Assembly: GCF_037042905.1 (NCBI RefSeq)
Contig: NC_087250.1
Location: 11,038,001 to 11,102,000, forward strand
Length of the DNA: 64,000 nt
Direction of reading: 5' to 3'
DNA from: Lytechinus pictus
Lineage: Eukaryota
Part shown: positions 8,591-56,529 of the stretch, one piece after another
How the letters are laid out: each line of letters begins with the position of its first letter
Numbering within the stretch: position 1 is the first letter of the stretch
The notes under the pieces: generated by a model
Database searches by the model: none
What the model saw: only the letters and a program-made list of their open reading frames with translations
What the model was told of the DNA's origin: nothing
Made by a program: the position numbers and the translations under genes

Positions 8591-10759
8591 ACTGGTGTAG
8601 CCAAGAATTTTCAATAGGGGGGGGGGGGGGGCAAGGCGAGGCTGTGGATGGGGGCATCTCCCGGCCACAGTAGGGAGATTTATTTTAATATGTGCATGAT
8701 TATTTTCTGTTCTGCACATCAAAATTCTATATTTTAGGAGAACTTATATGAGCAGTGGCATACTTATATTTTGTGTTCATTTCACATGGTAGGGATCGGT
8801 AAGTTATGTCAAGTGGACTCAATTAAAAAAAACAAAATTTAATTCACTTTAAAAACCAAGTTTCCACTTTAAAGTCGCAAGCATCTAGCATTCTAGGGTT
8901 GTCTGCAATGCTCGAAAGTTTTTTTTCGTTACTGTCATTTGAATTAGTCCATTCTATCACTGAATTATTATATTTCATGGACAATTAACTTCCATTCAAA
9001 TCCTTTCTCTTCTCTTTTTCTTTCTTTTTTCTTTTATATACCCGGTTCATTCTCAATACGCGGGACTAAAGGGCGTGTCGCTCACTTGACGATATTCCCT
9101 TCATATCAACACAAGATGGCGTTTTTATTTGACAGGGTAATAAATTAATATGAACCCTTTGTCGCTTTCTGTTAAGATGCAAATATATCGCAGAAATGGG
9201 CCGGATTTGTTCATACATCAACAGAATACATACTAAGGGTAAAAAAGGAATACATATATATAAGATTTGCTTCAGTTAAATGACAACTAGAATGATTTGA
9301 AACTTGGTGCTTACTTAACAAGAATAAACATTTACATGTACATATATGTGAATGCTGAAAATACAAAAAAAAAATGATTGTCAGAACTCCGATGTAAACT
9401 ATTTGCTAAAGCTGGTTGAAATATCTTCCTGTCATGGTGTTCCGATGTTATATGGTATTTGATAAGATGCTAGCTGCACGATATTAAAAAAAATGCGTTT
9501 AAAACGATGTCGCTCACTTGAAATTTCATGAAATATATGATTTTTAGGAGTACCAACGGAAAATAATTTTTATAAAATCAATGATAAAAGCTACAGCGCT
9601 GAAAACTTGGGAATAGCGAAAATATACATTTCTACAACCTTTCCATTTTGAATTAGGCATGAAAAATAATTATTCTGCCTGATATAGCAATTTTTTTAAT
9701 GAAGCAGAATTTGCTTTTTCGCCCAAACTATACTCAGATTTTGGCAGAATGAACATAAGTAGGACAAAGGATCTTTTGTTGGTAATCAGCCAGCGAGGAC
9801 AAACGAATAAAAGTGAGTTTAATTTTGTCAGAAAGAATAAAAAAACTTAATTTTGGGTTTGAAACTCGCTCTTATTCGTTCAAAAATAAAAAAAATTGGT
9901 CGAAAGTGTGCGTCATTTTGCGTGTTAAAATCGCATAGAAGGTGCTCAATATGCAAGTGAAAGAGGAAGAAAGAATCAAGACTCCTTTCTCAAACCAGTC
10001 TTGTCGCTCAATCATTTACGAAAGAGCATTAGTTCACGCCCGAAGTGTGTACAAAGCAGTGCAAAGTGTGTACAAAACACGTGCGCGGGTTAGAATGGAC
10101 TTTGGACCTTGCCCCGACACATGTTCTCCCATTGACAATGCACGGGTCCCCGGTCTTCGATCTTCGTTTTCCAAACCCGTTGTTGGGTGTCTGGAAAACG
10201 AAGACCGAAGACCGGGGATCGCATTCGTTTAGCTAAGATACCACTTATAAATGTCATTATGAAGGCCTCTATTATTCAGCTCAAATTCAAGAATATTCTG
10301 ATCTAGAATACATTAATGTCATTAATTGGCTGATAATATCATGTTAATTGCTTGTGTCAATAAATAGTATAGTTAGACCAGTTGAAGCGGGATAGGTCTC
10401 CCAGTTTACACCACTATTCCACTGAGACAATTAACAAACTCCAGTAATCAATCAGACCAGTTTCAAATTTCCAGTTAAAGGTTAACTCTAGACCAGTAAT
10501 TTCAGACCAGTTTAATTCTTAACTGGTCCAGTAAAGTGAACTCGACCAGTTAGACCAGTATGCCGTTTTTCCATTTTCCAGAATTACATTCTGTGAACTG
10601 GTTTTTCCTTCTTAATTGGCTGACATTAATTTGCAATTTTACTACCATTGACATAACGCATGTCCCCGGTCTTCGTTTTCCAAACCTGTTGTTGAGTGTC
10701 TGGAAAACGAAGACCGAAGACCGGGGATCGCGTCAATTCGTCTAGCTAAGATAGGCCTA

Positions 10760-13700
10760 TAATATTCAGCACCAGTTTAAGAATATTCTGATCTTGGATA
10801 CGTCATCAGCTATGATTGGCTGCGGACAAGTTATGGTTATTTGTGTGAATATCGTAATCAGCTAGGGCATGATTAATAAGGATAGATGACAATTATAATG
10901 TACATATTTCACCCACGGAATTCAGCCATTGCAATTCCGAAAACTGTCATAAAACTGAAAACTTGCATACAATACACCTCATACTGCGCAATCACGTACA
11001 GGCAGACTCAACTCAACTGGCGTTTGCAACTATTTTACTACCAGTGACATTACGCATGTCCCCGGTCTTCGGTCTTCGTTTTCCAAACCTGTTGTTGGGT
11101 GTCTGGAAAACGAAGACAGAAGACCGGGGATTGCGTATTCGTCTAGCTAAGATAGGCCTATAATATTCAGCTCCAGTTTAAGAATATTCTGATCTTGGAT
11201 ACGTCATCAGCTATGATTGGCTGCGGATAAGTTATGGTTATTTGTGTGAACATCGTTATCAGCTAGGGCATGATATTAAGGATAACGTACATATTTCACC
11301 CACGGAATTCAGCCATTGCAATTCTGAAAACTGTCATAAAACTGAAAACTTGCATACAATACACCTCATACTGCGCAATCACGTACAAGCAGACTCAACT
11401 CAACTGGCGTTTGCAACTATTTTACTACCATTGACATTACGCATGTCCCCGGTCTTCGGTCTTCGTTTTCCAAACCTGTTGTTGGGTGTCTGGAAAACAA
11501 AGACAGAAGACCGGGGATTGCGTATTCGTCTAGCTAAGATAGGCCTATAATATTCAGCTCCAGTTTAAGAATATTCTGATCTTGGATACGTCATCAGCTA
11601 TGATTGGCTGCGGATAAGTTATGGTTATTTGTGTGAATATCGTAATCAGCTAGGGCATGATTAATAAGGATAGATAACAATTATAATGTACATATTTCAC
11701 CCACGGAATTCAGCCATTGCAATTCTGAAAAATGTCATAAAACTGAAAACTTGCATACAATACACCCCATACTGCGCAATCACGTACAAGCAGACTCAAC
11801 TCAACCGGCGTTTGCAACTTTTTTACTACCATTGACATTACGCATGTCCCCGGTCTTCGGTCTTCGTTTTCCAAACCTGTTGTTGGGTGTCTGGAAAACG
11901 AAGACAGAAGACCGGGGATTGCGTATTCGTCTAGCTAAGATAGGCCTATAATATTTAGCCCCAGTTTAAGAATATTCTGATCTTGGATACGTCATCAGCT
12001 ATGATTGGCTGCGGATAAGTTATGGTTATTTGTGTGAATATCGTTATCAGCTAGGGCATGATATTAAGGATAACGTACATATTTCACCCACGGAATTCAG
12101 CCATTGCAATTCCGAAAACTGTCATAAAACTGAAAACTTGCATACAATACACCTCATACTGCGCAATCACGTACAAGCAGACTCAACTCAACTAGCGTTT
12201 GCAACTATTTTACTACCATTGACATTACGCATGTCCCCGGTCTTCGGTCTTCGTTTTCCAAACCTGTTGTTGGGTGTCTGGAAAACGAAGACAGAAGACC
12301 GGGGATTGCGTATTCGTCTAGCTAAGATAGGCCTATAATATTCAGCTCCAGTTTAAGAATATTCTGATCTTGGATACGTCATCAGCTATGATTGGCTGCG
12401 GATAAGTTATGGTTATTTGTGTGAATATCGTAATCAGCTAGGGCATGATTAATAAGGATAGATAACAATTATAATGTACATATTTCACCCACGGAATTCA
12501 GCCATTGCAATTCTGAAAACTGTCATAAAACTGAAAACTTGCATACAATACACCCCATACTGCGCAATCACGTACAAGCAGACTCAACTCAACCGGCGTT
12601 TGCAACTTTTTTACTACCATTGACATTACGCATGTCCCCGGTCTTCGGTCTTCGTTTTCCAAACCTGTTGTTGGGTGTCTGGAAAACGAAGACAGAAGAC
12701 CGGGGATTGCGTATTCGTCTAGCTAAGATAGGCCTATAATATTTAGCCCCAGTTTAAGAATAATCTGATCTTGGATACGTCATCAGCTATGATTGGCTGC
12801 GGACAAGTTATGGTTATTTGTGTGAATATCGTTATCAGCTAGGGCATGATATTAAGGATAACGTACATATTTCACCCACGGAATTCAGCCATTGCAATTC
12901 CGAAAACTGTCATAAAACTGAAAACTTGCATACAATACACCTCATACTGCGCAATCACGTACAAGCAGACTCAACTCAACTGGCGTTTGCAACTATTTTA
13001 CTACCATTGACATTACACATGTCCCCGGTCTTCGGTCTTCGTTTTCCAAACCTGTTGTTGAGTGTCTGGAAAACGAAGACAGAAGACCGGGGATTGCGTA
13101 TTCGTCTAGCTAAGATAGGCCTATAATATTCAGCTCCAGTTTAAGAATATTCTGATCTTGGATACGTCATCAGCTATGATTGGCTGCGGATAAGTTATGG
13201 TTATTTGTGTGAATATCGTAATCAGCTAGGGCATGATTAATAAGGATAGATAACAATTATAATGTACATATTTCACCCACGGAATTCAGCCATTGCAATT
13301 CTGAAAACTGTCATAAAACTGAAAACTTGCATACAATACACCCCATACTGCGCAATCACGTACAAGCAGACTCAACTCAACTGGCGTTTGCAACTTTTTT
13401 ACTACCATTGACATTACGCATGTCCCCGGTCTTCGGTCTTCGTTTTCCAAACCTGTTGTTGGGTGTCTGGAAAACGAAGACAGAAGACCGGGGATTGCGT
13501 ATTCGTCTAGCTAAGAGAAGGCCTATAATATTCAGCTCCAGTTTAAGAATATTCTGATCTTGGATACGTCATCAGCTATGATTGGCTGCGGATAAGTTAT
13601 GGTTATTTGTGTGAATATCGTAATCAGCTAGGGCATGATATTAAGGATAACGTACATATTTCACCCACGGAATTCAGCCATTGCAATTCTGAAAACTGTC

Positions 13701-16700
13701 ATAAAACTGAAAACTTGCATACAATACACCCCATACTGCGCAATCACGTACAAGCAGACTCAACTCAACTGGCGTTTGCAACTATTTTACTACCATTGAC
13801 ATTACGCATGTCCCCGGTCTTCGGTCTTCGTTTTCCAAACCTGTTGTTGGGTGTCTGGAAAACGAAGACAGAAGACCGGGGATTGCGTATTCGTCTAGCT
13901 AAGATAGGCCTATAATATTTAGCTCCAGTTTAAGAATATTCTGATCTTGGATACGTCATCAGCTATGATTGGCTGCGGATAACTTATGGTTATTTGTGTG
14001 AATATCGTTATCAGCTAGGGCATGATATTAAGGATAACGTACATATTTCACCCACGGAATTCAGCCATTGCAATTCCGAAAACTGTCATAAAACTGAAAA
14101 CTTGCATACAATACACCTCATACTGCGCAATCACGTACAAGCAGACTCAACTCAACTGGCGTTTGCAACTATTTTACTACCATTGACATTACGCATGTCC
14201 CCGGTCTTCGGTCTTCGTTTTCCAAACCTGTTGTTGAGTGTCTGGAAAACGAAGACAGAAGACCGGGGATTGCGTATTCGTCTAGCTAAGATAGGCCTAT
14301 AATATTCAGCTCCAGTTTAAGAATATTCTGATCTTGGATACGTCATCAGCTATGATTGGCTGCGGATAAGTTATGGTTATTTGTGTGAATATCGTAATCA
14401 GCTAGGGCATGATTAATAAGGATAGATAACAATTATAATGTACATATTTCACCCACGGAATTCAGCCATTGCAATTCTGAAAACTGTCATAAAACTGAAA
14501 ACTTGCATACAATACACCCCATACTGCGCAATCACGTACAAGCAGACTCAACTCAACTGGCGTTTGCAACTTTTTTACTACCATTGACATTACGCATGTC
14601 CCCGGTCTTCGGTCTTCGTTTTCCAAACCTGTTGTTGGGTGTCTGGAAAACGAAGACAGAAGACCGGGGATTGCGTATTCGTCTAGCTAAGAGAAGGCCT
14701 ATAATATTCAGCTCCAGTTTAAGAATATTCTGATCTTGGATACGTCATCAGCTATGATTGGCTGCGGATAAGTTATGGTTATTTGTGTGAATATCGTAAT
14801 CAGCTAGGGCATGATATTAAGGATAACGTACATATTTCACCCACGGAATTCAGCCATTGCAATTCTGAAAACTGTCATAAAACTGAAAACTTGCATACAA
14901 TACACCCCATACTGCGCAATCACGTACAAGCAGACTCAACTCAACTGGCGTTTGCAACTATTTTACTACCATTGACATTACGCATGTCCCCGGTCTTCGG
15001 TCTTCGTTTTCCAAACCTGTTGTTGGGTGTCTGGAAAACGAAGACAGAAGACCGGGGATTGCGTATTCGTCTAGCTAAGATAGGCCTATAATATTTAGCT
15101 CCAGTTTAAGAATATTCTGATCTTGGATACGTCATCAGCTATGATTGGCTGCGGATAACTTATGGTTATTTGTGTGAATATCGTTATCAGCTAGGGCATG
15201 ATATTAAGGATAACGTACATATTTCACCCACGGAATTCAGCCATTGCAATTCCGAAAACTGTCATAAAACTGAAAACTTGCATACAATACACCTCATACT
15301 GCGCAATCACGTACAAGCAGACTCAACTCAACTGGCGTTTGCAACTATTTTACTACCATTGACATTACACATGTCCCCGGTCTTCGGTCTTCGTTTTCCA
15401 AACCTGTTGTTGGGTGTCTGGAAAACGAAGAGAGAAGACCGGGGATTGCGTATTCGTCTAGCTAAGATAGGCCTATAATATTCAGCTCCAGTTTAAGAAT
15501 ATTCTGATCTTGGATAAGTCATTAGCTATGATTGGCTGCGGATAAGTTATGGTTATTTGTGTGAATATCGTAATCAGCTAGGGCATGATTAATAAGGATA
15601 GATAACAATTATAATGTACATATTTCACCCACGGAATTCAGCCATTGCAATTCTGAAAACTGTCATAAAACTGAAAACTTGCATACAATACACCCCATAC
15701 TGCGCAATCACGTACAAGCAGACTCAACTCAACCGGCGTTTGCAACTTTTTTACTACCATTGACATTACGCATGTCCCCGGTCTTCGGTCTTCGTTTTCC
15801 AAACCTGTTGTTGGGTGTCTGGAAAACGAAGACAGAAGACCGGGAATTGCGTATTCGTCTAGCTAAGATAGGCCTATAATATTCAGCTCCAGTTTAAGAA
15901 TATTCTGATCTTGGATACGTCATCAGCTATGATTGGCTGCGGATAAGTTATGGTTATTTGTGTGAATATCGTAATCAGCTAGGGCATGATTAATAAGGAT
16001 AGATAACAATTATAATGTACATATTTCACCCACGGAATTCAGCCATTGCAATTCTGAAAACTGTCATGAAACTGAAAACTTGCATACAATACACCCCATA
16101 CTGCGCAATCACGTACAAGCAGACTCAACTCAACCGGCGTTTGCAACTTTTTTACTACCATTGACATTACGCATGTCCCCGGTCTTCGGTCTTCGTTTTC
16201 CAAACCTGTTGTTGGGTGTCTGGAAAACAAAGACAGAAGACCGGGGATTGCGTATTCGTCTAGCTAAGATAGGCCTATAATATTTAGCCCCAGTTTAAGA
16301 ATATTCTGATCTTGGATACGTCATCAGCTATGATTGGCTGCGGATAAGTTATGGTTATTTGTGTGAATATCGTTATCAGCTAGGGCATGATATTAAGGAT
16401 AAAGTACATATTTCACCCACGGAATTCAGCCATTGCAATTCTGAAAACTGTCATAAAACTGAAAACTTGCATACAATACACCTCATACTGCGCAATCACG
16501 TACAAGCAGACTCAACTCAACTGGCGTTTGCAACTATTTTACTACCATTGACATTACGCTTGTCCCCGGTCTTCGGTCTTCGTTTTCCAAACCCGTTGTT
16601 GGGTGTCTGGAAAACGAAGACAGAAGACCGGGGATTGCGTATTCGTCTAGCTAAGAGAAGGCCTATAATATTCAGCTCCAGTTTAAGAATATTCTGATCT

Positions 16701-19700
16701 TGGATACGTCATCAGCTATGATTGGCTGCGGATAAGTTATGGTTATTTGTGTGAATATCGTTATCAGCTAGGGCATGATATTAAGGATAACGTACATATT
16801 TCACCCACGGAATTCAGCCATTGCAATTCCGAAAACTGTCATAAAACTGAAAACTTGCATACAATACACCTCATACTGCGCAATCACGTATAAGCAGACT
16901 CAACTCAACTGGCGTTTGCAACTATTTTACTACCATTGACATTACGCATGTCCCCGTTCTTCGGTCTTCGTTTTCCAAACCTGTTGTTGGGTGTCTGGAA
17001 AACGAATACAGAAGACCGGGGATTGCGTATTCGTCTAGCTAAGATAGGCCTATAATATTCAGCTCCAGTTTAAGAATATTCTGATCTTGGATAAGTCATT
17101 AGCTATGGTTGGCTGCGGATAAGTTATGGTTATTTGTGTGAATATCGTAATCAGCTAGGGCATGATTAATAAGGATAGATAGCAATTATAATGTACATAT
17201 TTCACCCACGGAATTCAGCCATTGCAATTCTGAAAAATGTCATAAAACTGAAAACTTGCATACAATACACCCCATACTGCGCAATCACGTACAAGCAGAC
17301 TCAACTCAACCGGCGTTTGCAACTTTTTTACTACCATTGACATTACGCATGTCCCCGGTCTTCGGTCTTCGTTTTCCAAACCTGTTGTTGGGTGTCTGGA
17401 AAACGAAGACAGAAGACCGGGGATTGCGTATTCGTCTAGCTAAGATAGGCCTATAATATTTAGCCCCAGTTTAAGAATAATCTGATCTTGGATACGTCAT
17501 CAGCTATGATTGGCTGCGGATAAGTTATGGTTATTTGTGTGAATATCGTTATCAGCTAGGGCATGATATTAAGAATAACGTACATATTTCACCCACGGAA
17601 TTCAGCCATTGCAATTCTGAAAACTGTCATAAAACTGAAAACTTGCATACAATACACCTCATACTGCGCAATCACGTACAAGCAGACTCAACTCAACTGG
17701 CGTTTGCAACTATTTTACTACCATTGACATTACGCATGTCCCCGGTCTTCGGTCTTCGTTTTCCAAACCCGTTGTTGGGTGTCTGGAAAACGAAGACAGA
17801 AGACCGGGGATTGCGTATTCGTCTAGCTAAGAGAAGGCCTATAATATTCAGCTCCAGTTTAAGAATATTCTGATCTTGGATACGTCATCAGCTATGATTG
17901 GCTGCGGATAAGTTATGGTTATTTGTGTGAATATCGTTATCAGCTAGGGCATGATATTAAGGATAACGTACATATTTCACCCACGGAATTCAGCCATTGC
18001 AATTCTGAAAACTGTCATAAAACTGAAAACTTGCATACAATACACCCCATACTGCGCAATCACGTACAAGCAGACTCAACTCAACTGGCGTTTGCAACTA
18101 TTTTACTACCATTGACATTACGCATGTCCCCGGTCTTCGGTCTTCGTTTTCAAAACCTGTTGTTGGGTGTCTGGAAAACGAAGACAGAAGACCGGGGATT
18201 GCGTATTCGTCTAGCTAAGATAGGCCTATAATATTTAGCTCCAGTTTAAGAATATTCTGATCTTGGATACGTCATCAGCTATGATTGGCTGCGGATAAGT
18301 TATGGTTATTTGTGTGAATATCGTTATCAGCTAGGGCATGATATTAAGGATAACGTACATATTTCACCCACGGAATTCAGCCATTGCAATTCCGAAAACT
18401 GTCATAAAACTGAAAACTTGCATACAATACACCTCATACTGCGCAATCACGTATAAGCAGACTCAACTCAACTGGCGTTTGCAACTATTTTACTACCATT
18501 GACATTACGCATGTCCCCGTTCTTCGGTCTTCGTTTTCCAAACCTGTTGTTGGGTGTCTGGAAAACGAAGACAGAAGACCGGGGATTGCGTATTCGTCTA
18601 GCTAAGATAGGCCTATAATATTCAGCTCCAGTTTAAGAATATTCTGATCTTGGATAAGTCATTAGCTATGGTTGGCTGCGGATAAGTTATGGTTATTTGT
18701 GTGAATATCGTAATCAGCTAGGGCATGATTAATAAGGATAGATAGCAATTATAATGTACATATTTCACCCACGGAATTCAGCCATTGCAATTCTGAAAAA
18801 TGTCATAAAACTGAAAACTTGCATACAATACACCCCATACTGCGCAATCACGTACAAGCAGACTCAACTCAACCGGCGTTTGCAACTTTTTTACTACCAT
18901 TGACATTACGCATGTCCCCGGTCTTCGGTCTTCGTTTTCCAAACCTGTTGTTGGGTGTCTGGAAAACGAAGACAGAAGACCGGGGATTGCGTATTCGTCT
19001 AGCTAAGATAGGCCTATAATATTTAGCCCCAGTTTAAGAATAATCTGATCTTGAATACGTCATCAGCTATGATTGGCTGCGGATAAGTTATGGTTATTTG
19101 TGTGAATATCGTTATCAGCTAGGGCATGATATTAAGGATAACGTACATTTTTCACCCACGGAATTCAGCCATTGCAATTCTGAAAACTGTCATAAAACTG
19201 AAAACTTGCATACAATACACCCCATACTGCGCAATCACGTACAAGCAGACTTAACTCAACTGGCGTTTGCAACTATTTTACTACCATTGACATTACGCAT
19301 GTCCCCGGTCTTCGGTCTTCGTTTTCCAAACCTGTTGTTGGGTGTCTGGAAAACGAAGACAGAAGACCGGGGATTGCGTATTCGTCTAGCTAAGATAGGC
19401 CTATAATATTTAGCTCCAGTTTAAGAATATTCTGATCTTGGATACGTCATCAGCTATGATTGGCTGCGGATAACTTATGGTTATTTGTGTGAATATCGTT
19501 ATCAGCTAGGGCATGATATTAAGGATAACGTACATATTTCACCCACGGAATTCAGCCATTGCAATTCTGAAAACTGTCATAAAACTGAAAACTTGCATAC
19601 AATACACCCCATACTGCGCAATCACGTACAAGCAGACTCAACTCAACTGGCGTTTGCAACTATTTTACTACCATTGACATTACGCATGTCCCCGGTCTTC

Positions 19701-39920: not shown

Positions 39921-40155
39921 CACATCCAAGATGACGAGATACGATATCTCGCCAAGTCGACTTATAAAAGGTCATAGATGTCGACATGGCATAATTAAGT
40001 TTCTCGCCAAGTCGATGGCAATTAAAACATGTAAAAGGGATGGTCCTGGCTGAAAATATTTATATCTTAATACATAGAGTAGAATTCACTGAGCAATGTG
40101 CCGAAATTTTTTTCAATCGGATAACAAGTAAACAGTTATTGAAGTTTAAAGTTTA

Positions 40156-41557: not shown

Positions 41558-42127
41558 TAGCAATATATTGTTAAAACAGTCGTCGTGAATATTCATTAGG
41601 TGGGCTGATTATGTCACATCTCCACTCTCCGTTTCCCTATGTTATTATATATAATCATAATTTTTACATTATTTCATATTTGTGCTAATAATATGTATCC
41701 CTTATAATGAAATAAGTTGCAGCAATAAATATTTAATGCACTAAATCAGTTGCCAATCCAATTTTTCTACTTTTTTGTTCTTGGATGAAAACATTTGAAT
41801 AAACCTAATTTCATATAATAAAATATCGGACCCGCGGACTATCGGACCCGCGGTCTATCGGACCCGCGGTCTATCGGGCTGTAACCGTAGTCCTCGGGTC
41901 CGATAGTCCGCGGTGTGTGTAAAATTATGGTCAGGATATAGTGAGATCCAATGACATCAAGAGGTCAAAAGGCCAATGATACGAGTCCATGGGGTTCTAT
42001 AACGATGACCCAAAGGACAATCGCCCCCTGACATCTACTTCAAGGAAAATATTATCCCCATATTTTTATCGTCAGGGACTGTTACCCCCCCCCCCCCCCC
42101 CCGGAAATTTACCCTCTAGACGCCATA

Positions 42128-42790
42128 CGGAGCCTCTAAAATGCCATCGACTTGACGACATGGCGAGATAGTTTATCTTGCCATGTCGACTAAATAAGCT
42201 TATTATGTCCGCATGGCGCGATACGTTATCCTACCACTTATAAAAAGTTATATGTCAACATGGCGAGATATTTTATCTTGCCAAGTCGACTTAAATAAGT
42301 TACATGTCAACATAGCGATATATCGGGATTCTCGCCGGGACTTGTACACTTCATATCTCGCCATGTGGACATATAGACTTGACAAGATAGAATATATCGT
42401 TATGTCGAAATAATAAGCGTATTAATTACTTAGGCGGCGGAAGCGGGGGGGGACCTTTCCCCCCTAAATTTGAGGTGGGGGACGGTCCCCCCTAGATTTT
42501 TAGTTGAGAACCTTTTTTTTTGCTTTTCTATTTGTTTTCTACGTCCCCCCCTAAATTGAGGTGGACCCCCCCTAAAATCTTTTTGTCCCCCCCCCCTAAT
42601 TTTGGTTGATAACCTTTTTTTTTCTTGTCAAAAAATTTTGGTGGTCCTTCTTATAAATTTTGGTTGACTTGCTTGTCAAATTTTTTACCTGTGTCCATCC
42701 CAAAATTTCAGGTGGACCCCCCTAATTTTTTTTGCCTTCCGCCGCCAATGATTAATTAAGACATGGCAAGATGGCATTTTCAAGGCTCCG
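42128..42790. mobile_element. TA-TSD MITE with internal GGCGAGATA/GTCGAC repeats
   Basis: Structure is TA|CGGAGCCTCTAAAATGCCATC ... GATGGCATTTTCAAGGCTCCG|TA. Confidence 0.85.
42429..42750. mobile_element. Small hAT-like MITE with 8-bp TSD ATTAATTA
   Basis: Structure is ATTAATTA|CTTAGGCGGCGGAAG ... CTTCCGCCGCCAATG|ATTAATTA. Confidence 0.85.
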
Positions 42791-42939
42791 TACTAGGGGT
42801 AATTATCCGGGGTAATTGTCTGGAGGTTTAATTTCCGGGGGGGGGTATCAGTCCCCGGCGGTAAAAATATGGGGATAATATTTTCCTTGAAGTAGTTGTC
42901 AGGGGGTGATTGCCCTAATTGGGTTATTGTTATAGAACC

Positions 42940-45900
42940 CAGGCGCGGATCCAGGATTTCGTGGGGAAGGGGGGGGGGGCAAATTTGACCTGATTTTTGG
43001 CGCCCATATGTGTACTCTTCGAAAAATAGCGCCCACTCCCTCCCGGGAAGGCTAAATTAAGTGCCTTAAATGGATTTTGAATTATCTTATAATCACATTT
43101 AAAAAAATAAAGACCACTTTTTCATGTGTTCTTAAAAAAAAAATCCATAAATATATAATGTAATATCAATGGGAGCGCGAAGCACGAGTGATTTTTTTTT
43201 TTTTTTTTTTTTTTTTTTGGGGGGGGGGGGTTCAATTTGGTTCTTCTAACCAGAGTAGGCCCTACTAGAATATTGTGTGAACGGGAGCTGTAGTTTCTGT
43301 ACTGTTGTGTTAGAATACCCTTCAATAATATTAATGATAACCTCTTGGGAATAATGCAATCTCGAAGCAATCGACTAATTCTCCTCATCAGTGGCGTATT
43401 TATTCAGCATGGGTGCACGGGGGGGGGGGGGTGGCGAGGGCACCAAGTTAAAAAAAATAAATGAAATGGGGGGGGGTAGACGTCAAAGAAAATCTGAGAT
43501 TTCATTCTTAAAAACAAATTGAGGTATCTCACAAGGCCTAAATAAATAATGAGAACGCGAAGCGCGATCTTTTTTTAAATAGATTTTTCATGTATTATAT
43601 CCTGAAAGCCTAAGTCAGGGGCGGACCCAGCTTCCGCCAATAGGGTGAGGGGCCATTTTTTCACCCATATTTTTCCCGATCGGCCGCTCAAAGTTGATTT
43701 TTTTTTGTTTCTTTGAAGGGGTTGTCCCAGTGCCGTAATGAGCCAACAATTTCGAGGGGGCTCGATATGGTGTATCGCATAAAATTAATAAGAAGTTGCC
43801 AGTGAGCGAAGCGAGCAAGCAAATATCCTGACATTTTTATTACAAAAATACAAGGTTGTGATAGATTTTGACATAATATTTGGAAAATAATATTATATTT
43901 CATCCTAATCCCTTTCCTTTTCTCTCTATTTTTTCTTAGTCTTGATTCTCTCTATTTTTTTAACAGTCATTTCCTAGCTTTATTTTATAAGCAACATAAA
44001 TCTCTTAAGCCCTATGTAATCTAAAAATGAAATTTCATGTATTTTGTCCTGAAAATTGAACATTTTGGGCAATGTTTGTGAACCTGAACAGGACGCGTAT
44101 GTAACTAGATAATTACCACGAGCGCGAAGCGCGAGCAGAAATGTTAAATATTCGTTCTAGCCTGGTCGAAAAGGGACCAGTTAAGGATGTTTTGCAGTTA
44201 GCCATTAAGACGATACACATTTCAACGATTAAATAATGCGAGCGCGAAGCGAGAGCTGAACATTTTTGATATTCCAACCTAAAAATATGATATTTCAAAT
44301 CCCCCAATGGGACATTCGATTCATGTTTGTCAATCATGAAAAAGGATGGGTAATTTTTGTTATCTCCCTACAATAATAATGGGAGCGCAAAGCGCGAGCT
44401 GAACATTTTTGATATTCCAACCTAAAAAGATGAGATTTCAAACCCCCCAATGGGACATTCGATTCATGTTTGTCAATCATGAAAAAGGATGGGTAATTTT
44501 TGTTATCTCCCTACAATAATAATGCGAGCGCAAAGCGCGAGCAGAACATTTTGGATATTCTGATTTGAAACTGGATAATTTTAGCACGTTTTGAATAAGA
44601 TCAAGCTTTGTATCTCAAAAAACATGCGTGCACGTGTTTTAGAGTTAGACAGAATCCTGGCAATCTGAATACATTTCATTCTTCATCATAAAAATCAATA
44701 ATGCGAGCGCAGAGCCCGAGCTGAAAATAATATTTGAAATTCCGATATGAAAAGGGTCAATTTAAGCACTGTTTACAGCACTGTGTATATAGGGAAATTT
44801 GATAGCACTATATAAATAATGCGAGCGCGAAGCGGGAGCTGATATTTTATTATTTATTTGACCTAGGATCGAGACATTTTAGGCCTAAGGACATTTTGTC
44901 ATCATATAAGAATGATGACTATCTTCTATTTTTTTTCCTAAAACTTGTTGATATTTATTTCTGAAAAAGGGACAATTTAGTTATTATGAATTCATACAAA
45001 TCTTATTTCATATTTATTAATCTGTTAAGCCTAATGAGTGTGTGAAATTTGTTGACAGTGCATGAGGCCTGAAAACTGGATATTTTAAGTATTTTTGTAA
45101 TCATAAATAGGATTCATTGGTTGATATATTTTTAGCAAATAATGCGAGCGCAAATTGCGATCCGGAATTTTTTAATGGGGGGATTTAAGTAGTTTGTTAT
45201 AGAATTAATATATAGGTATACATAACTCACCAATCAAAATGCGAGCGCGTAGCGCTAGCTCATAGGCCTTTATTATTTTTTTTTACAATCGAGGCACCTG
45301 AAAAGGTATATTTAGAGAATCTTATATGAAATATAAAAAGACAATAGGTAGGCCTACTTGGCAAATAGTGCGAGCGCACAAAATGTTGCAAATGTTGATT
45401 CAAACCATAAAACGGACATTTTCCAGAGCACTTAAAAACATAAATTGGTAAATAAAACAAAATAATGAAAGGTCAATGTCCGAGCTGATTTTTTTTTGTA
45501 TATTGATATCAAAACTTGATATTTTAAACTACATATCAGCCTATTGAGCAAGATATGTATCTCATTGAACAGGCAATGCGAGCGCGATGCGCGAGCGAAA
45601 CTTTAATATAGTGACATTAAATATTTTTAAAAATTGTTTTCCAAGTCTTCTCCTGACCTTATTTTATTCACTCGTCTTCCTCCTTTTATGTTTTGTCTTT
45701 TTTTTCTCCTTTCTTTCCCCCTTTTTTTCTTTCCCCATTTTTCACAATTTATTTGCTCTGTCAATAGGGGGGGAGGTTGCCCTCGTGCCGCCTCAATCCG
45801 CCTATGTTAGTAGTTGTTATGATGAACACGATGCATATCTATTAAGAAATGAATGCGACCGCGAAGCGCTAGCTGAAAACTTTTATAATGATGAAATGAA

Positions 45901-47587
45901 AAATACATTTTCAGTTGTCAGGTTGGAATATCAAATATTTTTAGCTTGTGCTTCTCGTTCGCATAAAAAACTGTAAGGTCGGGATGCGTATATAACTAAA
46001 CAATGTATTGATGCCAGCGCGAAGCGCGAGCTAAATTTTTTATATGCTGACTTAAGAAGGACTAAGGTATAATTCCTATTCTAATTGCTTGTCCTTTTTC
46101 TCTTCCTTTTTTCTGTTTCTTACCCCTTTTTTGCGCCACCATGGGGGGGGGGGGCAAAATATTTGCCCCCTGGATCGGCTTATGTATGTTGACTTGAAAA
46201 ACACTAACACTTACATGTGGGATTGAAGCAGAGGATGAATACCTCGTTAATCAAATATTGCGAGCGCGTAGCGCGAGCTGAATTTGATAATAACCCTTTT
46301 TTGTGACCCTGAACAGTGTATCTTTCTCGCTAAACAGACTTAAAACTCGAAAACATTGTTTTTCCTGTTATCGTAAAAACGGGATATTTTAATTCAGCCG
46401 CATTAATTTAAGTTTTTTGGGCAGGACATATGTTTCACTATTAAAGTTCAAGGTCAATTTGGCGCCCTCGGTTGAACATAAACTTGGCGCCCCCATGTGA
46501 AATATAACTTTGTCCTCCCTCCCCCTCTCTGAAACATGTATTTGACGCATTATGGTCAAAATTCAAATTAGCGCTCCCCAAGTTCGAACATCAATTTGGT
46601 GCCCCGCTAGATCGAACATCAATTCAGCGCCCCATAGTTCGAACGTCATTTTGGCGCCATCAAATCGACGTCCAGGTCAACATCTCCCTCTTCCGTTTCC
46701 CATCTCCTTTTCTTTCTTTTTTCTTTCTCTTATCCTCATTCCCCTTCCTTCCTTTTTCTTTCTTTCTCTATTTCTTTCCCCCTCTTCTTTTCCCCCTTTT
46801 CTTCTCTTTCCCCCGATCTTTTCTTTCCCCCTTATCTTCTCTTTTTCTGTCTTTTCTTTCCCTCTTTTCCTCTCTCTCTTTTCTCGCTTTTCCTCTCTTC
46901 CCCCTTACTCTCTCTTTTTTCTTCTCTTTTCCTCTCTTCTTCTCTCTCTCTCTTTTCTTATCTTTCTTCCCATCTTCCTCTCTCCTTAAATATTATTCTC
47001 TTCCTCTTTTTTTCTTCTTCTTTTCCCCCTTTTCCTTATTATGTTCTTTTCTTTCTTTTCCCTCTTCCACTTTTTTCTCTTTCCCCCTTTACCTCTCCCT
47101 TTTTCTTTTTCTTTTTCTTTCCTTTCCCTCTTTTTTCTCTTTTAATTTTTTTTTCTTCTCTCCCTCCCCTTCCTCCCTCTCTCTCTCTATCTTCTCTACT
47201 TTTCCCCTCTTCCTCTCTCTCTCTTTTTTCTTATCTTTCTTCCCATCTTCCTCTCTATTTAAATATTCTTCTATTCCTTCCTCTTTTTTTTCTTCTTTTT
47301 CCTCCTTTTCCTTTCTCCTTTCTTTTCTTCTTTTCCTTTTCCCTCCTCTTTTTTTACTCTTCTTTCCCCTTTTCATCTCCATTTTTTTCTTTGTCTTTCC
47401 TTTCCCCTTTTTCTTATCTTTTTTCTTCTCTTCCTTTCTCCTTCTTACTCTCTTTTCTATTCTCTTCTTTTCCCATCTTCCTTTTTTTTTATTCTCTCCC
47501 TTTTCCCCTCTTCCCCCCTCTTTTTTGAGCTGGGGGTGGGGGGGGGGTGAGGTAGTTCCCCCTCGGTCCCCCATGGATCCGCACCTG
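42940..47587. mobile_element. hAT-like non-autonomous element with 8-bp TSD ATAGAACC, containing further unresolved nested ends (43388, 43616, 43728, 45806)
   Basis: Structure is ATAGAACC|CAGGCGCGGATCCA ... TGGATCCGCACCTG|ATAGAACC. Confidence 0.88.
46680..47525 (+). repeat. Polypyrimidine (C/T) low-complexity tract, ~850 bp
   Basis: The tract is almost exclusively C/T and produces the F/S/L-rich and K/E/R-rich spurious ORFs. Confidence 0.92.
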
Positions 47588-48443
47588 ATAGAACCCATGG
47601 CTTCGTATCATTTGACCTTTGGACCTCTCGATGACATTTGATATATCTGATCATAATTTTACACACACTGCGGACTATCGGACCCGCGGTCTATCGGACC
47701 CGCGGACTATCGGACCCGCGGTCTATCGGACCCGCGCTCTATCGGGATGTCCCCATTCATTAAGCTATACATGCTTTCAGCCCAGACCATCCCTTTAAAG
47801 GCTCCGTATAAAATAAACCTAATTGTAATAGAAAGCAATGTCATCGACCTAAGACAGGTGGCAAGCGTGCCTTTGTAGAATGCTGTTGCCGGTATGCGAT
47901 GTTTTCTATACGGTCGGCGCACATGAAACACAATTGCGTCGCTTGTATACTACTTTGCGGTTAAACCCGAGACGTTCCCACGCGTACATTTCGAGGGCAA
48001 CAATTCAGTACGCGTTTGGAAGAAAATTACCCTGTTTACACGTGCATCGGCTTTTGGTTCAGAATTGGCTTTTGGTCTATCTTGCACCGCAGAATCGGCT
48101 TACCCTCTTTGGGAATCGACGGGCGGACGACATTTGGATCTCTTAGTCTCGCCTTCACCTCTTGCGGGCGAGACAAACAATGAGAAAGAGAAGGAAGAAA
48201 GGAGAAAGGAAAAGGGCCAATAATTGGAATGATCAAACAAATCTAATCATCTTGAAATAGGGCCTACTAATAAACAAGTGAGAAAGGGGTTAGAAATAAA
48301 GAGATGGCAAAGTGGAACGGAAATTTTAGGCGGGAAAGGGAAGGAAGAGAGGCCAAAATAAACGGGATGCGAAAATGCTAACATGAAATCGGAATAGAAA
48401 ACAGAAAAAACAAGAGGGGAAAAGAAAGAAATTGAGAACACAA

Positions 48444-49767
48444 CAGCTAGTGGCGTAGCTACGGGGGGGGGGGGGGGGGGGGGGCTGGGAGCCCCCCCCC
48501 CCCCCCTGAGATTTGGTGTGCCCCCATCAGGTGCCCCGCCTGGAAAAAAATTGGTAGAGCAAAAAAAAAAAAGGGAGAAAGAAGAAAAGAAAAAGAAGAA
48601 GAAAGACAGAAGAAAAAAGAAGAGGAAAATAAGAGGAGGGAGACAAATGAATGAAATAATGTGAGGGAAAGACTTGCCAAAAAGAAACAATTCTTTCATG
48701 TTACTATAAAAAATCTTTGCTTGCGCTTCGCGCCAGAATTGGCTGTTCGATGAGATTCATATTTTGCTCAATAGGCTGATATGGAGCAAGTTTTGAAGTC
48801 ATTATACAAAACATAATTAGCTCGGACATCGAGCTTTCAATATTTTTTTCATTTACAAATTTAAGTGCTCTGTAAAATGTCAGTTTTATTGTCTACATAT
48901 CAGCATTTTTTTTTTTAAGCTCACGCTGCGTGGTCACATTGTTTGATTTGCCAAGTTCCTATTGTCTACATGTATTCCATAATGTTCCATTAAAGAAATA
49001 TATTCAGAATGCCCAGATTCTAGGTCTAAATCTAAAACATGCGCGATAGCATGCATGTTCTTTATTTAAAATCTACTTGAATTATCCAGTTTCACATCAG
49101 AATATAAATAATTGTCTGCTCGCGCTTTACGATAGCATAATTAATGATACCCAATTAACTATATCCTATTTATGATTTACAAAATATGAATAGTGTCCCG
49201 CTTTTAGGTCTAAAATCTCAATTTTTTCCTCTTGCGCTTCGCGCTCGCATCCATTGTTTCGTTACATACCTATCCCATTTATTGATACAAAAAGCGCTTA
49301 GAATTACCATTCTTTTAGGTCGGAATGTAAAAAAAAATGCATTATTGAAATATATACCATCTTCGTAGGTACCTATATAAGTGCACTTAACAGGTCCCTT
49401 TTCGATAATGCTAGAAAAGTTAATAAAAATTTCTGCTCGCGCTTGGCGTTCGCAGTAACCATCTAGTTACATACGAATCTTGATCGGGATCACACATAAC
49501 ATTGCCCAGAATATTACATGAAAGTAACAAATAAAAAAAAATCGCTCGCGCTTCGCGCTCGCACTTTTTATAATGCTTATGAGATTATTTTATGTTTATG
49601 CTGTTTTATAAGAATATAACGAAGAAGTGACTGATCGGGAAAAATATAGGTAAAGATAATTTCGGGCCCTTGTGACAAGTACACACCGGATAAAAATGGT
49701 GCCCCCCCCTGACTCAAAGCAAGGACCCCCAGTGCCCCCCAGGAAAAAAATCCTAGCTACGCCACTG
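48444..49767. mobile_element. hAT-like non-autonomous element with 8-bp TSD GAACACAA
   Basis: Structure is GAACACAA|CAG(CTAG)TGGCGTAGCTA ... TAGCTACGCCACTG|GAACACAA. The left TIR appears to carry a 4-bp insertion. Confidence 0.75.
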
Positions 49768-51744
49768 GAACACAACCGGGATACCGAGGTTGAAAATAAA
49801 GAAAGGTAAGAAAGACTCGGCTGGTGTGTGGGTATGACGTGTATATAATAGCCTATTTTGATTTCACGCAACTAGCCGCAATCATAAGGGGACACAAATT
49901 AGTGAACTTCAAGATATCGCCCAACCACTGCCGATGTTCCTATCCAGGGGACAGACCGCTCTTCACACCATGATATGCAGCGGCGTAACAGGGATCGGTG
50001 GCCAGGGGCGGGGGGGGGGGGCGGGCAAGAGCAAAATATTTCCTGGTCACATTATATGGTATAAACAGGCGTAATGAGCCGACACTATTTTGAGAAGGCC
50101 AGATATTGTGCATCGGACAGAATTTATCTTTTAAAAAATGCGAGCGAGCAAAAATTTTGACCTTTTTAATACAGAAATCCAATTTTGTGATAGATTTTGA
50201 CATGATGTCCAGAGATTGATATTTCACTCTTCTCTCTTTGGATTCCTTTTTTGTCGTCTGTACGCGCACTGTGAACAGGATTCTTTGCGGCTGTAACGTG
50301 AAGAGTAAAAGAAAAAGAAAAAAAAACAGGGGTGGAGTATACCACATGTGCTAAAGAAAGCCGTTTTATATAAGTCCCGAGCGAAGCGAGCGAGAAAAAA
50401 ATCACCTTTTCATGAGAATTTAACTTTGAGCTATCATATCCTACACTTTTCCTCTGCTTTTTTTTGTGTTTTTGTTTGTACAACTTTTTGGGCCCATGGC
50501 CCAACACTTCGTTACGCAGTGATGTGCGGTTGGGGTCCGGGGCGGAGCCCCCTGAAAAATTCTTGATATCAAAGCCATTTAAACCTCGCAGATTGCCGCT
50601 ATTTTAATCAAATCGCATTCTACATAGACTATAGCTTTTACACAACACATTTATTCAACCCAGTTGCGTAATGAACCAAATTTTTATAGGGCAAAGCATA
50701 CCAACGTGGGAAAAAAATTGTAAAAAGTCGCTAGCGTGCAAAGCGAGCTGGAAAAAAATTGCCTATTGAAATTAAATTCTAATTATGTGATATATTTTCC
50801 ATTATATTCAGCAAATAACACATTTCATTGTCCATTCATTTCATTATACTTTGTCTCCTATAATTTTCTTTTTTTCCCTCTTGGGTGTGGAACACCCCCC
50901 CCCCCCGCCTGTATGCCATTGATTGAACATTGTTGAACGGGGGTAGGTATATAGCCATTTGAAGGTTATAAATGCTGAAGAGCCCATACTGCGTGGGGTC
51001 TGGGACAAAGGCCCGGTAGCTTATTTGCATAAAATCTAGCAAGCTTATAACACAATGTTGTATGCAGACCATCTTTCTTCCCGCTCTTTTCAATCATCGG
51101 TAGCCCGGTCGTGTTATTATTTTTTTCTTGTCCCTTTTTCCCTTGTATTTTTTTCCAATTTAGCTTTTGATTAATTACGTTCTACCTTCGTTTCCCGCTC
51201 TTCATACCATTTTGTTATCTTTTAAATTATTTCCCACCGTGATATTGCATTACATAGGCCTATTTCGGAATGATGTGTTCTTTCTCAAATGTTCTTCTTT
51301 CGTATATTTTCCCGCTTTCCTTTTTTTTCCATTAAAAAAAAAGTTTTTTTCTTCGTTTTTTTTCTCAATTTTCCCTTTCCTTTTCCTCCTTTCCTTTTCC
51401 CATTTCCTTCCCCATTTCCCTGTCTTTCTTTCCCCCTCCCTTTTTTCTTTTTCCCGTTTTTCTTAATTACGCCACTGATGATAATGACCGGGAATTTTCT
51501 GGCTCTCGTCCCCCCCCCCCTCCCCTGGCCACCGAACGCTGCTACGCCCCTGATTCTATGTAAGCATCTATTAATTGCATGCATTTTTCAGTTTGAAAAT
51601 TTGTTTTCTTTAAAAACGATATGACAATTTCATGGAATATTGTATCCACGTATATCGGTTGTTTTAAGGTCTGTTTATCAGCCAGCACGAAGAAAACGAA
51701 GTACAATTGCACGGAAACGTGTCCATAGCACGCTATATGTGGTA

Positions 51745-54110
51745 ATTAGCTTGACGAATGAAATCCCCGGTCTTCTGTCTTCGTTTTCCAGACACCCAAC
51801 AACAGGTTTGGAAAACGAAGACCGAAGACCGGGGACATGCGTAATGTCAATAGTAGTAAAATAGTTGCAAACGCCAGTTGAGTTGAGTCTGCTTGTACGT
51901 GATTGCGCAGTATAGGGTGTATTGTATGCAAGTTTTCAGTTTTATGACAGTTTTCAGAATTGCAATGGCTGAATTCCGTGGGTGAAATATGTACATTATA
52001 ATTGTTATCTATCCTTATTAATCATGCCCTAGCTGATAACGATATTCACACAAATAACCATAACTTATCCGCAGCCAATCATAGCTGATGACGTATCCAA
52101 GATCAGAATATTCTTAAACTGGAGCTGAATATTATAGGCCTATCTTAGCTAGACGAATACGCAATCCCCGGTCTTCTGTCTTCGTTTTCCAGACACCCAA
52201 CAACAGGTTTGGAAAACGAAGACCGAAGACCGGGACATGCGTAATGTCAATGGTAGTAAAATAGTTGCAAACGCCAGTTGAGTTGAGTCTGCCTGTACGT
52301 GATTGCGCAGTATGAGGTGTATTGTATGCAAGTTTTCAGTTTTATGACAGTTTTCGGAATTGCAATGGCTGAATTCCGTGGGTGAAATATGTACGTTATC
52401 CTTAATATCATGCCCTAGCTGATAACGATATTCTAACAAATAACCATAACTTATCCGCAGCCAATCATAGCTGATGACGTATCCAAGATCAGAATATTCT
52501 TAAACTGGAGCTAAATATTATAGGCCTATCTTAGCTAGACGAATACGCAATCCCCGGTCTTCTGTCTTCGTTTTCCAGACACCCAAAAAAGGTTTGGAAA
52601 ACGAAGACCGAAGACCGGGGACATGCGTAATGTCAATGGTAGTAAAATAGTTGCAAACGCCAGTTGAGTTGAGTCTGCTTGTACGTGATTGCGCAGTATG
52701 GGGTGTATTGTATGCAAGTTTTCAGTTTTATGACAGTTTTCAGAATTGCAATGGCTGAATTCCGTGGGTGAAATATGTCCATTATAATTGTTATTTATCC
52801 TTATTAATCATGCCCTAGCTGATAACGATATTCACACAAATAACCATAACTTATCCGCAGCCAATCATAGCTTATGACGTATCCAAGATCGGAATATCCT
52901 TGTACTGGTGCTGAATATTATAGGCCTATCTTAGCTAGACGAATACGCAATCCCCGGTCTTCTGTCTTCGTTTTCCAGACACCCAACAACAGGTTTGGAA
53001 AACGAAGACCGAAGACCGGGACATGCGTAATGTCAATGGTAGTAAAATAGTTGCAAACGCCAGTTGAGTTGAGTCTGCCTGTACGTGATTGCGCAGTATG
53101 AGGTGTATTGTATGCAAGTTTTCAGTTTTATGACAGTTTTCGGAATTGCAATGGCTGAATTCCGTGGGTGAAATATGTACGTTATCCTTAATATCATGCC
53201 CTAGCTGATAACGATATTCTAACAAATAACCATAACTTATCCGCAGCCAATCATAGCTGATGACGTATCCAAGATCAGAATATTCTTAAACTGGAGCTAA
53301 ATATTATAGGCCTATCTTAGCTAGACGAATACGCAATCCCCGGTCTTCTGTCTTCGTTTTCCAGACACCCAACAACAGGTTTGGAAAACGAAGACCGAAG
53401 ACCGGGGACATGCGTAATGTCAATGGTAGTAAAATAGTTGCAAACGCCAGTTGAGTTGAGTCTGCTTGTACGTGATTGCGCAGTATGGGGTGTATTGTAT
53501 GCAAGTTTTCAGTTTTATGACAGTTTTCAGAATTGCAATGGCTGAATTCCGTGGGTGAAATATGTCCATTATAATTGTTATTTATCCTTATTAATCATGC
53601 CCTAGCTGATAACGATATTCACACAAATAACCATAACTTATCCGCAGCCAATCATAGCTTATGACGTATCCAAGATCGGAATATCCTTGTACTGGTGCTG
53701 AATATTATAGGCCTATCTTAGCTAGACGAATACGCAATCCCCGGTCTTCTGTCTTCGTTTTCCAGACACCCAACAACAGGTTTGGAAAACGAAGACCGAA
53801 GACCGGGGACATGCGTAATGTCAATGGTAGTAAAATAGTTGCAAACGCCAGTTGAGTTGAGTCTGCTTGTACGTGATTGCGCAGTATGGGGTGTATTGTA
53901 TGCAAGTTTTCAGTTTTATGACAGTTTTCAGAATTGCAATGGCTGAATTCCGTGGGTGAAATATGTACGCTATCCTTAATATCATGTCCTAGCTGATAAC
54001 GATATTCACACAAATAACCATAACTTATCCGCAGCCAATCATAGCTGATGACGTATCCAAGATCAGAATATTCTTGAACTGGTGCTGAATATTATAGGCC
54101 TATCTTAGCT
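51745..54110 (-). repeat. Inverted short array (~6 monomers) of the same satellite
   Basis: Reverse-complement monomers alternate long and short, with palindromes at about 51765, 52165, 52552, 52952, 53338 and 53739. Confidence 0.97.
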
Positions 54111-56529
54111 AGACGAATTGACGCGATCCCCGGTCTTCTGTCTTCGTTCTCCAGACACCCAACAACAGGTTGGGAAAACGAAGACCGAAGACCGGGGACA
54201 TGCGTTATGTCAATGGTAGTAAAATTGCAAATTAATGTCAGCCAATTAAGAAGGAAAAACCAGTTCACAGAATGTAATTCTTGAAAATGGAAAAACGGCA
54301 TACTGGTCTAACTGGTCGAGTTCACTTTACTGGACCAGTTAAGAATTAAACTGGTCTGAAATTACTGGCCTAGAGTTAACCTTTAACTGGAAATTTGAAA
54401 CTGGTCTGATTGATTACTGGAGTTTGTTACTTGTCTCAGTGGAATAGTGGTGTAAACTGGGAGACCTATCCCGCTTCAACTGGTCTAACTATACTAATTA
54501 TTGACACAAGCAATTAACATGACTTCATTATCAGCCAATTAATGACATTAATGTATTCTAGATCAGAATATTCTTGAATTTGAGCTGAATAATAGAGGCC
54601 TTCATAATGACATTTATAAGTGGTATCTTAGCTAAACGAATGCGATCCCCGGTCTTCGGTCTTCGTTTTCCAGACACCCAACAACGGGTTTGGAAAACGA
54701 AGATCGAAGACCGGGGACCCGTGCATTGTCAATGGGAGAACATGTGTCGGGGCAAGGTCCAAAGTCCATTCTAACCCGCGCACGTGTTTTGTATACACTT
54801 TGCACTGCTTTGTACACACTGGGCGTGAACCACAAACGCTTTCACACGAGTGTGATATGAGTCCCCGGTCTTCGGTCTTCGGTCTTCGTTTTCCAGACAC
54901 CCCTAGTATTCGTTTTCACGTACCTTTCATTCCATTTATTAGGGTTTTATCAACCATGTCAACGAATTGACGATCCCAATATTGACCGCATGTTTGTTTT
55001 AACATGAGAATTCGCAAATGCCCTTGATATTCATAATTCTGTTTTATTTTAAGTTTGTCATTAATGTTTGTTAACATTCACTCTGCTAATAACTTGTCAA
55101 TTTTGATTTACAAAAAAAAATCAAGTCTGCTTACTGATGTCCTTTGTCTATTTTAATTATTTTTTGTTGTTGATATGCCTTTCTTTCTTTTTTCCTGATT
55201 CCACCCTGTGCACCCCGTTAAAACTCAAGGAAGAATGTTTCAAATGTTTTCTAGTTCTTACACCGTTCATAATAAGGAGATGGGATTAGGTGTAAAGTTA
55301 ACGCTGAAGGGAGAGGAATGGGTACGTATGGAGAGAGAGAAAAAAACTTATCACAAAAGATAAAGAATTGATCTCCATGACATTAAATCACAATTGCGTC
55401 CTATTTTTTTAACAAGTTTGTATGATACATGTATGCCTCCCACGTAAGGCGTAAGGAAAAAAGTTTACCTAATGCATCAAATTAGATTAATTGATTAGAT
55501 TCATTGCGGTAAATGAAAAACAATAAATTCGATGTTCCAGCCAGGGTGACCAGATTTCACAAAATTTAATACGGGACAATCGACAAAGCACTATGTACCA
55601 TCGGATCGACCGAGCCAGGCCAAAAATCAACAAGAAGGCTACACAATGTTAGACTTGTTAACAAAATATATTAAGAAAGGGGAAGGGATGGTGAGCGGAA
55701 GAAACAAAAGAGAAAAAAATGAGGAAACAAGAAATGAGTTGCGAGGAAAGAAAAAAAAATAAGGAGAGAAAAGAGAAAAGTAAGAAAAATGGAGGAAAAG
55801 AGAAAGAAAGAAAGAAAAGGAATTCCTTCATTATTTGAAAGAAACAAAGACAAAAGAAAACATGAAGGAAGCAAGGAATGAAGAAAGGAAAGAAGGAATA
55901 AGGGAAAAGAATTAAAAGGGAAAACAGAAATTAAAAAATGAAAGAAAAGAAAACAAATAACATCTAAAAAAAAAAAATCTAGAATAGATTCTGATCACGC
56001 TAGTTTAAAAATATAATGGTCTATCACAACATAACCAAAGTACATGCACATGTATACATAATGCAATGTACGTACCCTAGGGTACCCGAGGATAAGTGCG
56101 GGCACGGCCAATATTATATAGCACGCAGGAAACTGCGGGCGCGGCTAAAACCCTAGGGGGCTCCCCTTGAATACCCTCGGTTAGACGCAAAAGCCCCCTA
56201 GGGTGTTTGCGTGCTCGGGCGTGACGTTTCCTGCGGCCGGCACTGTATTATTTAACGAAAATAAGGTGAAAATCTTGTAGTTTGTATTCCTTCATCTCTT
56301 TTCAACTAATGCTCATGAAATTTGGCACACACATCAGTCTTGAGTTGAAAATGTGCGAGAATATTTTTGTTTGTATCAGAAATCGTGTTGCCAAGGTAAC
56401 AACATATCATACGCCAAAATAAGATTAAGACAGTGGTCAATGCTAACTTTTGTTTGGCTACATAGAAAACGACATGTAGCTGTGGGCTTCGTTATCGTTT
56501 TTAATTTTAGGGTGGGGGGGGGGGGGGCT

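Follow-up and report, generated by a model that had tools for sequence, protein, structure and literature searches.

Foldback-type elements such as FB, Galileo and Tetris carry tandem repeats within their terminal inverted repeats (TIRs) and can seed satellite DNA; a first-pass annotation of the sequence analyzed here took this as established, and cited sections of the literature bear it out for Tetris (PMC4079207) and Rehavkus (PMC12581902). Tetris, a foldback transposon of Drosophila virilis (Dias et al. 2014; PMC4079207), is described in those sections as consisting of an outer domain, tandem repeats and a variable non-coding middle. A stretch of the outer domain is also found in the repeat, the arrays, which expand within the element, reach up to 66 copies, the repeat number varies between arms and between alleles, and all three complete copies lack a transposase. 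Here we report on a 64,000-nucleotide stretch of the genome of Lytechinus pictus (RefSeq assembly GCF_037042905.1, contig NC_087250.1, positions 11,038,001 to 11,102,000, forward strand; hereafter the window), in which a lead-in sequence followed by a tandem array is present twice, in inverted orientation, with an 11.8-kb centre between the two copies, and in which the array in one arm (arm A) is approximately twelve-fold larger than the array in the other (arm B).

Two further systems are close to this locus. For Rehavkus in Tribolium, the cited part of one study gives 2-12 repeats in one species and, in its sister species, a related repeat whose arrays reach 80.5 kb (PMC12581902), while a second source, as cited here, lists a 9-bp target-site duplication (TSD), TIRs of 26-400 bp and a PHD-finger transposase as hallmarks of the group, which is known from arthropods and annelids (PMC6446971). 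The same Tribolium study describes macro-dyads of TfSat01 and TfSat03 in Tribolium freemani, i.e., inverted satellite sub-arrays without a transposon, in which, according to the sections cited, orientation switches directly between truncated monomers and a few conserved junction types occur on many chromosomes (PMC12581902).

Compared with Tetris as described in those sections, the L. pictus locus likewise has an outer domain with a repeat-derived stretch, unequal repeat numbers and a non-coding middle; beside these, it has a 90-nt hairpin in each monomer and no inner domain common to both arms. Tetris, on the other hand, has TSDs of 8-9 bp and many dispersed copies, whereas no TSD was found at this locus. 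Like the published Rehavkus case, the locus presents few repeats in one context and an expanded array in another, although the contrast lies within what may be one element here and between species there, and the TSD, TIR and transposase hallmarks listed for Rehavkus were not found. The macro-dyads, as far as the cited sections describe them, share with this locus inverted sub-arrays of kilobase size, unequal arms and dyad symmetry within monomers; at this locus, however, the arms are separated by 11.8 kb of unrelated sequence and a non-satellite lead-in stands at each outer end. Instead of a direct switch between truncated monomers, we found 11,825 bp without any monomer remnant between the arms.

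Two inverted arms of unequal size

The structure comprises the following features (window coordinates):

10032-39920, plus strand: arm A, 29,889 bp
10032-10635, plus strand: left lead-in, the outer domain of arm A, 604 bp, an inverted match to 54830-54226
10122-10361, plus strand: old diverged monomer in the lead-in, monomer positions 51-268 (nhmmer E = 9e-45), with its own hairpin
10636-39920, plus strand: array A, with 73 whole monomers between a partial monomer at the outer end and a truncated one at the inner end (Tandem Repeats Finder, TRF; segmentation; nhmmer)
39921-51745, no strand: centre or middle domain, 11,825 bp, lacking any recognisable coding domain and made up of a mosaic of other repeats
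51746-54830, inverted: arm B, 3,085 bp, or 3,160 bp if extended to 54905
51746-54225, minus strand: array B, with five whole monomers flanked by a truncated monomer on the inner and a partial one on the outer side (TRF, nhmmer)
54226-54830, minus strand: right lead-in, the outer domain of arm B, 605 bp
54860-54902, minus strand: extra monomer fragment found on the right side only, monomer positions 114-156 (nhmmer E = 1e-5; alignment)

TRF assigned array A a length of 29.3 kb, a period of 387 and 74.6 copies with 94% matches, and array B a length of 2.5 kb, a period of 386 and 6.3 copies; the array B consensus is the reverse complement of the array A consensus. BLAST aligned 10032-11353 in inverted orientation to 54830-53501 (E = 0). 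The first-pass annotation had reported two inverted arms with the same lead-in, arm sizes of about 29.9 and 3.1 kb and a contrast of approximately 74 versus 6 monomers, and all three statements agree with these measurements, the shared lead-in being found by both BLAST and alignment.

The two lead-ins, both of which start at the same base, with an outer end beginning GTTCAC, align with 596 matches, 6 substitutions and 2 gap events (99% alike, 1.0% divergent). Previously described as unique and as approximately 730 bp long, the shared lead-in stands, but it measures only about 600 bp to the first partial monomer and is not unique throughout, the segment at 10122-10361 being a diverged monomer. 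The monomer tree separates this old monomer from those of the arrays by 0.28 changes per site; its hairpin has a predicted energy of -35.7 kcal/mol (z = -7.9). It is followed by approximately 268 bp of CCAGTT-rich sequence, after which the array begins at monomer position ~40. Apart from the right-hand fragment at 54860-54902, nhmmer detected no monomer remnants in the centre or the flanks, and the sequences outside arms A and B are mutually unrelated.

Two simple explanations for the layout were considered and rejected. A simple inversion within one array was ruled out, as the lead-in is present on both arms, and placement of arm B as a misplaced second haplotype of arm A was ruled out, as the outer flanks are unrelated.

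The monomer occurs in a long form of 401/402 bp and a short form of 387/388 bp (~40% GC), distinguished by an insert of 14 bp and by a small number of linked substitutions; as first noted from the sequence, both forms are found in each arm. Mean pairwise distance within a monomer type is 1.3-1.7%. Short (S) and long (L) monomers strictly alternate in arm B (SLSLSL), while arm A alternates in its outer and inner parts and is irregular inside. Every monomer contains a dyad of approximately 90 nt (monomer positions 67-156), which is predicted to form, in single-stranded DNA, a hairpin of -31 to -39 kcal/mol (z = -8 to -11; none of 200 shuffles was equally stable). No Pfam family matched two monomer open reading frames (ORFs), and no tRNA genes or Rfam matches were found in the window, so that the monomer represents no recognisable RNA or coding unit. 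Protein-level searches found no match at E <= 0.001 for either the lead-in ORF (54632-54970) or the monomer ORF (16299-16697), and six monomer strings occurred in none of the papers of the full-text library searched. With its long head-to-tail arrangement, homogenised variants and higher-order blocks of 2-17 monomers, the array has the structure expected of satellite DNA.

The arms are copies of one unit

Variants were analyzed in an alignment of 82 monomers from both arms, numbered from the outermost (A00, B00) to the innermost (A74, B06); the monomer tree also had 82 rows, i.e., 80 monomers and the two lead-in copies, with 54 of the 82 rows distinct. The outermost monomers A00 and B00 exclusively share variants at alignment columns 67, 148 and 153-154 (2/82 monomers each). 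At the other end, the innermost monomers A74 (at 39647) and B06 (at 51910) exclusively share a C>T change at column 58, which is the single-nucleotide variant of the innermost monomers already noticed in the first-pass annotation and which indeed occurs in exactly 2 of the 82 monomers. A74 also has variants at columns 191 and 198 that are found elsewhere in A00, B00, B01 and B03 only. Moreover, the six variants that are common to both arms without being diagnostic of a monomer type are all confined to A00, A01 and A74, that is, to 3 of the 75 monomers of arm A.

In the monomer tree, the long clade (support 97) contains 32 monomers from arm A and 3 from arm B, and the short group contains 38 and 2, respectively. 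As each type contains monomers of both arms, the long-short dimer predates the arm split. The comparison of monomers by arm and position, which had been proposed as a check, thus gave edge variants shared between the arms and both monomer types in both arms: arms A and B are copies of one unit, matching at their outer and inner ends.

The same variants bear on whether the arms could have arisen by two independent head-to-head insertions of a unit consisting of lead-in and array in a single orientation, e.g., a Helitron-like element. Identical lead-in start bases and shared monomer types would fit two such insertions, as would the differing inner ends described below, which separate copies might have. 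Yet the private variant of the innermost monomers and the B-type variants in A74 demand one short master for both insertions, the inner ends have no common terminus, and no other copy that would speak for mobility was found in the collections searched. Helitron ends start with TC, while the outer end here starts with GTTCAC. We consider this explanation very improbable.

Arm A expanded and arm B stayed near the starting state

Substitution variants present in at least two arm A monomers and in no arm B monomer numbered 35. Arm B has eight private variants, all of which fall in B01/B03 and B02/B04, two pairs of 99.5% identical monomers; these twin pairs indicate one dimer duplication in arm B. 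Arm A, by comparison, is made of nested block duplications with units of several monomers, and the duplicated blocks jointly make up approximately half of the arm:

14819-22648: shift 6656 bp, 19 mismatches
10980-13522: shift 21968 bp, 23 mismatches
34295-36662: shift 1577 bp, 25 mismatches
32720-34715: shift 788 bp, 22 mismatches
12749-14696: shift 1176 bp, 13 mismatches
17834-19579: shift 1562 bp, 6 mismatches
14819-29304, plus strand: youngest large duplication in array A, in which block 14819-22648 is repeated 6656 bp (17 monomers) further on

Block divergences range from 0.2 to 1.1% and are not above the divergence of the lead-ins (1.0%). Since the blocks are no more divergent than the lead-ins, since B-type variants occur only at the edges of arm A, and since 35 variants are restricted to arm A, arm A expanded at or after the arm split, and arm B is near the starting state. 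The proposal that the unexpanded arm is near-ancestral and provides an internal control for array expansion is therefore supported by edge variants, A-only variants and block duplications alike. Formally, arm B could instead have contracted from a long array, but contraction would leave unexplained why the derived variants of A73, which would be the partner of B05, are missing from B05.

The 6656-bp-shift block shows 19 mismatches and no indel over 7830 bp, and its core at 15524-22500 differs at just 2 positions in approximately 7 kb; this twin core is either very young or an over-expansion in the assembly. An assembly artefact in the arrangement or the size, whether through a wrongly joined or inverted piece or through over-expansion of an array, would draw on this near-identity. 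The window is free of N (N count, 0), however, the lead-ins diverge by 1%, and arm B has eight private variants; a chimeric fold-back read would put the arms next to each other, without 11.8 kb of unique spacer, and approximately 58 monomers are left in arm A after one 6656-bp block is removed. An artefact is therefore improbable.

These data show the following course of events. The ancestral unit consisted of a lead-in of approximately 600 bp containing one old monomer, followed by a short alternating array of 401- and 387-bp monomers with ~90-nt hairpins, each ancestral arm having approximately 6-7 monomers. Arm A then grew to approximately 75 monomers through repeated tandem duplication of blocks of two to at least 17 monomers, and arm B underwent a single dimer duplication only. 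The growth probably proceeded through out-of-register pairing of monomers, by unequal exchange or by slippage during replication. Taken alone, the homology of the arms and the expansion of arm A are conclusions in which we have high confidence.

Is the structure a foldback transposon?

We tentatively favor, at somewhat less than even confidence, a reading of the inverted structure as a dead, non-autonomous DNA transposon of the foldback type, similar to Tetris or Rehavkus, or as the relic of such an element. The first-pass annotation had called the structure foldback-like, and part of this description holds, namely the inverted outer domain, the repeats and the non-coding middle; the TSD, equal tips and transposase that would complete it were not found. 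Its termini are long, inverted and composed of an outer domain plus tandem repeats, as expected for a foldback element, and other inverted-repeat elements with tandem repeats are found in the same window, which we count for this reading. If the structure is a foldback element, its left tip would have been lost and its middle would have been filled by later insertions.

Several observations weigh against a foldback element. The sequence flanking the shared homology is ...GAGCATTA to the left and CACAAACG... to the right, with no TSD at either 10032/54830 or 10032/54905; the longest direct match among 3850 boundary pairs was 6 bp, which is approximately the chance level and lies inside the element. 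The homology does not end equally at both tips. The right end had been placed at 54905, but shared homology stops at 54830, and the remainder is the monomer fragment at 54860-54902, which is absent on the left; because the right arm runs approximately 75 bp further, the outer boundary does not form two clean tips. At the inner ends, too, the arms differ, with A74 continuing to monomer position ~273-282 and B06 being canonical to position ~165 only, and no inner domain common to both arms was found, nothing in the centre adjoining the arms. None of the 103 ORFs (at least 45 aa) in the centre reached the Pfam cut-off, and no transposase was among them, in agreement with the initial statement that the ~12-kb centre holds no recognisable transposase. 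Finally, the repeat of Tetris is approximately 220 bp long and AT-rich in the published description cited here, whereas two alternating types of 401 and 387 bp with ~40% GC are found at this locus.

Some of these observations are what one would expect if the edge of an array (lead-in plus approximately six monomers) had been copied in inverted orientation nearby, as a non-mobile inverted segmental duplication, for example through fold-back or template switching at hairpin-forming monomers, with the spacer subsequently enlarged by insertions and one copy expanded. Such a duplication would leave no TSD, and the left boundary lies inside satellite-derived sequence that continues on the right, as for an arbitrary breakpoint. 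The hairpins would offer a site for the event: every monomer has a strong one (0 of 200 shuffles as stable), and array B ends at position ~165, just past the hairpin at 67-156. Beyond this point, approximately 12 bases of B06 are closer to the old lead-in monomer than to the canonical monomer, a weak indication in the same direction. A second inverted duplication, the Tc1 palindrome at 632-2951, is present in the window, and inverted sub-arrays without a transposon are documented in Tribolium freemani in the cited part of that study (PMC12581902), although the sub-arrays described there switch orientation without intervening sequence, unlike this locus.

An inverted duplication nevertheless needs one extra event in either direction. 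If arm B is the copy, the additional 75 bp on the right must later have been lost on the left; if arm A is the copy, A74 should hold the inner sequence of B06, which it does not. The 11.8-kb spacer would in addition need several later insertions, and inverted ends visibly delimit only approximately 2.4 kb of this sequence. We regard an inverted segmental duplication as a real possibility, albeit one held with less confidence than the foldback transposon.

Motif scans were also performed. A 24-nt lead-in motif and a 45-nt monomer pattern had no matches in metagenome contigs, and a 27-nt monomer motif had none in contigs of prokaryote genomes or viruses; as animal genomes are not expected in these collections, the blank scans neither support nor reject mobility.

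Composition of the centre

The centre contains the following recognisable units:

40154-41559, no strand: short TIR element of 1.4 kb with 33-nt inverted ends (94% complementary), flanked by TA on each side
41992-42940, no strand: second short element, 0.95 kb, with inverted ends of ~80-100 nt (89-91% complementary)
43952-45765, no strand: left half of an old inverted pair, an inverted match to 49649-48550
48550-49649, no strand: right half of the old inverted pair, an inverted match to the left half

The interior of the 40154-41559 element consists of 31-bp CCAGTT/AACTGG tandem repeats (TRF), so that this small transposon-like unit itself carries tandem repeats; the element is probably a later insertion. 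The possibility that the CCAGTT-rich part of the lead-in is a copy of this element was unsupported (a match of merely 66%, E = 0.004). The old inverted pair, whose halves are 62-70% identical with relaxed scoring and 76-81% identical in the best blocks, encloses a CT-rich low-complexity stretch (46500-47640) and may be a single old element present twice or, alternatively, the long termini of a different element. Its left half includes a 143-bp tandem duplication (44232-44560). A search for inverted symmetry across the whole centre found only this pair. CT-rich sequence at 47108-47522 has an inverted look-alike (64-66%) at 55663-55977, just to the right of arm B; the resemblance is probably compositional only.

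Neighbouring sequences

A Tc1 palindrome occupies 632-2951, with arms at 632-1660 and 1923-2951 that are 99.5% identical in inverted orientation and separated by a 262-bp spacer; both outer tips are the same Tc1 end. An ORF at 1763-2686 corresponds to residues 35-342 of a 342-aa Tc1 transposase (98% to P0001). In this palindrome, a truncated copy meets, head-to-head, a second, inverted copy of its 3' part. According to Pfam, this unrelated Tc1 protein is the only transposase in the window. To the left of the structure, an (ATG)n microsatellite extends over 844 bp (7681-8524; 72% matches, TRF), and tandem units of approximately 150 bp are found at 6591-7190. The latter have an 80% relative in direct orientation on the right side, at 56253-56406, and these units are probably members of a dispersed repeat family. 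Pieces of non-LTR (long terminal repeat) retrotransposons follow further to the right:

59131-59580, minus strand: reverse transcriptase
62027-62470, plus strand: zinc knuckle
62960-63490, plus strand: endonuclease/exonuclease/phosphatase domain

Implications for satellite growth

The locus is a good case for measuring array growth, as both the order of the growth steps and their size can be read from its nested duplications, with dimers first and then blocks of up to 17 monomers. The principle of array growth seen here is already published, whether the structure is a transposon or a duplication, and a plain inverted duplication would represent ordinary satellite dynamics. If the structure is a foldback element, the unexpanded and the expanded state would stand side by side in one element, with the starting point fixed by shared edge variants; for Tetris and Rehavkus, such a contrast is drawn, in the published sections cited here, between copies, alleles or species. 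That the locus represents an undescribed foldback family outside insects, with approximately six repeats in one terminus and approximately 75 in the other, is on present evidence rather unlikely. If such a family does exist, the 90-nt monomer hairpin would be a subterminal binding or fold-back unit, and a single element would record the birth of a satellite together with its own internal control.

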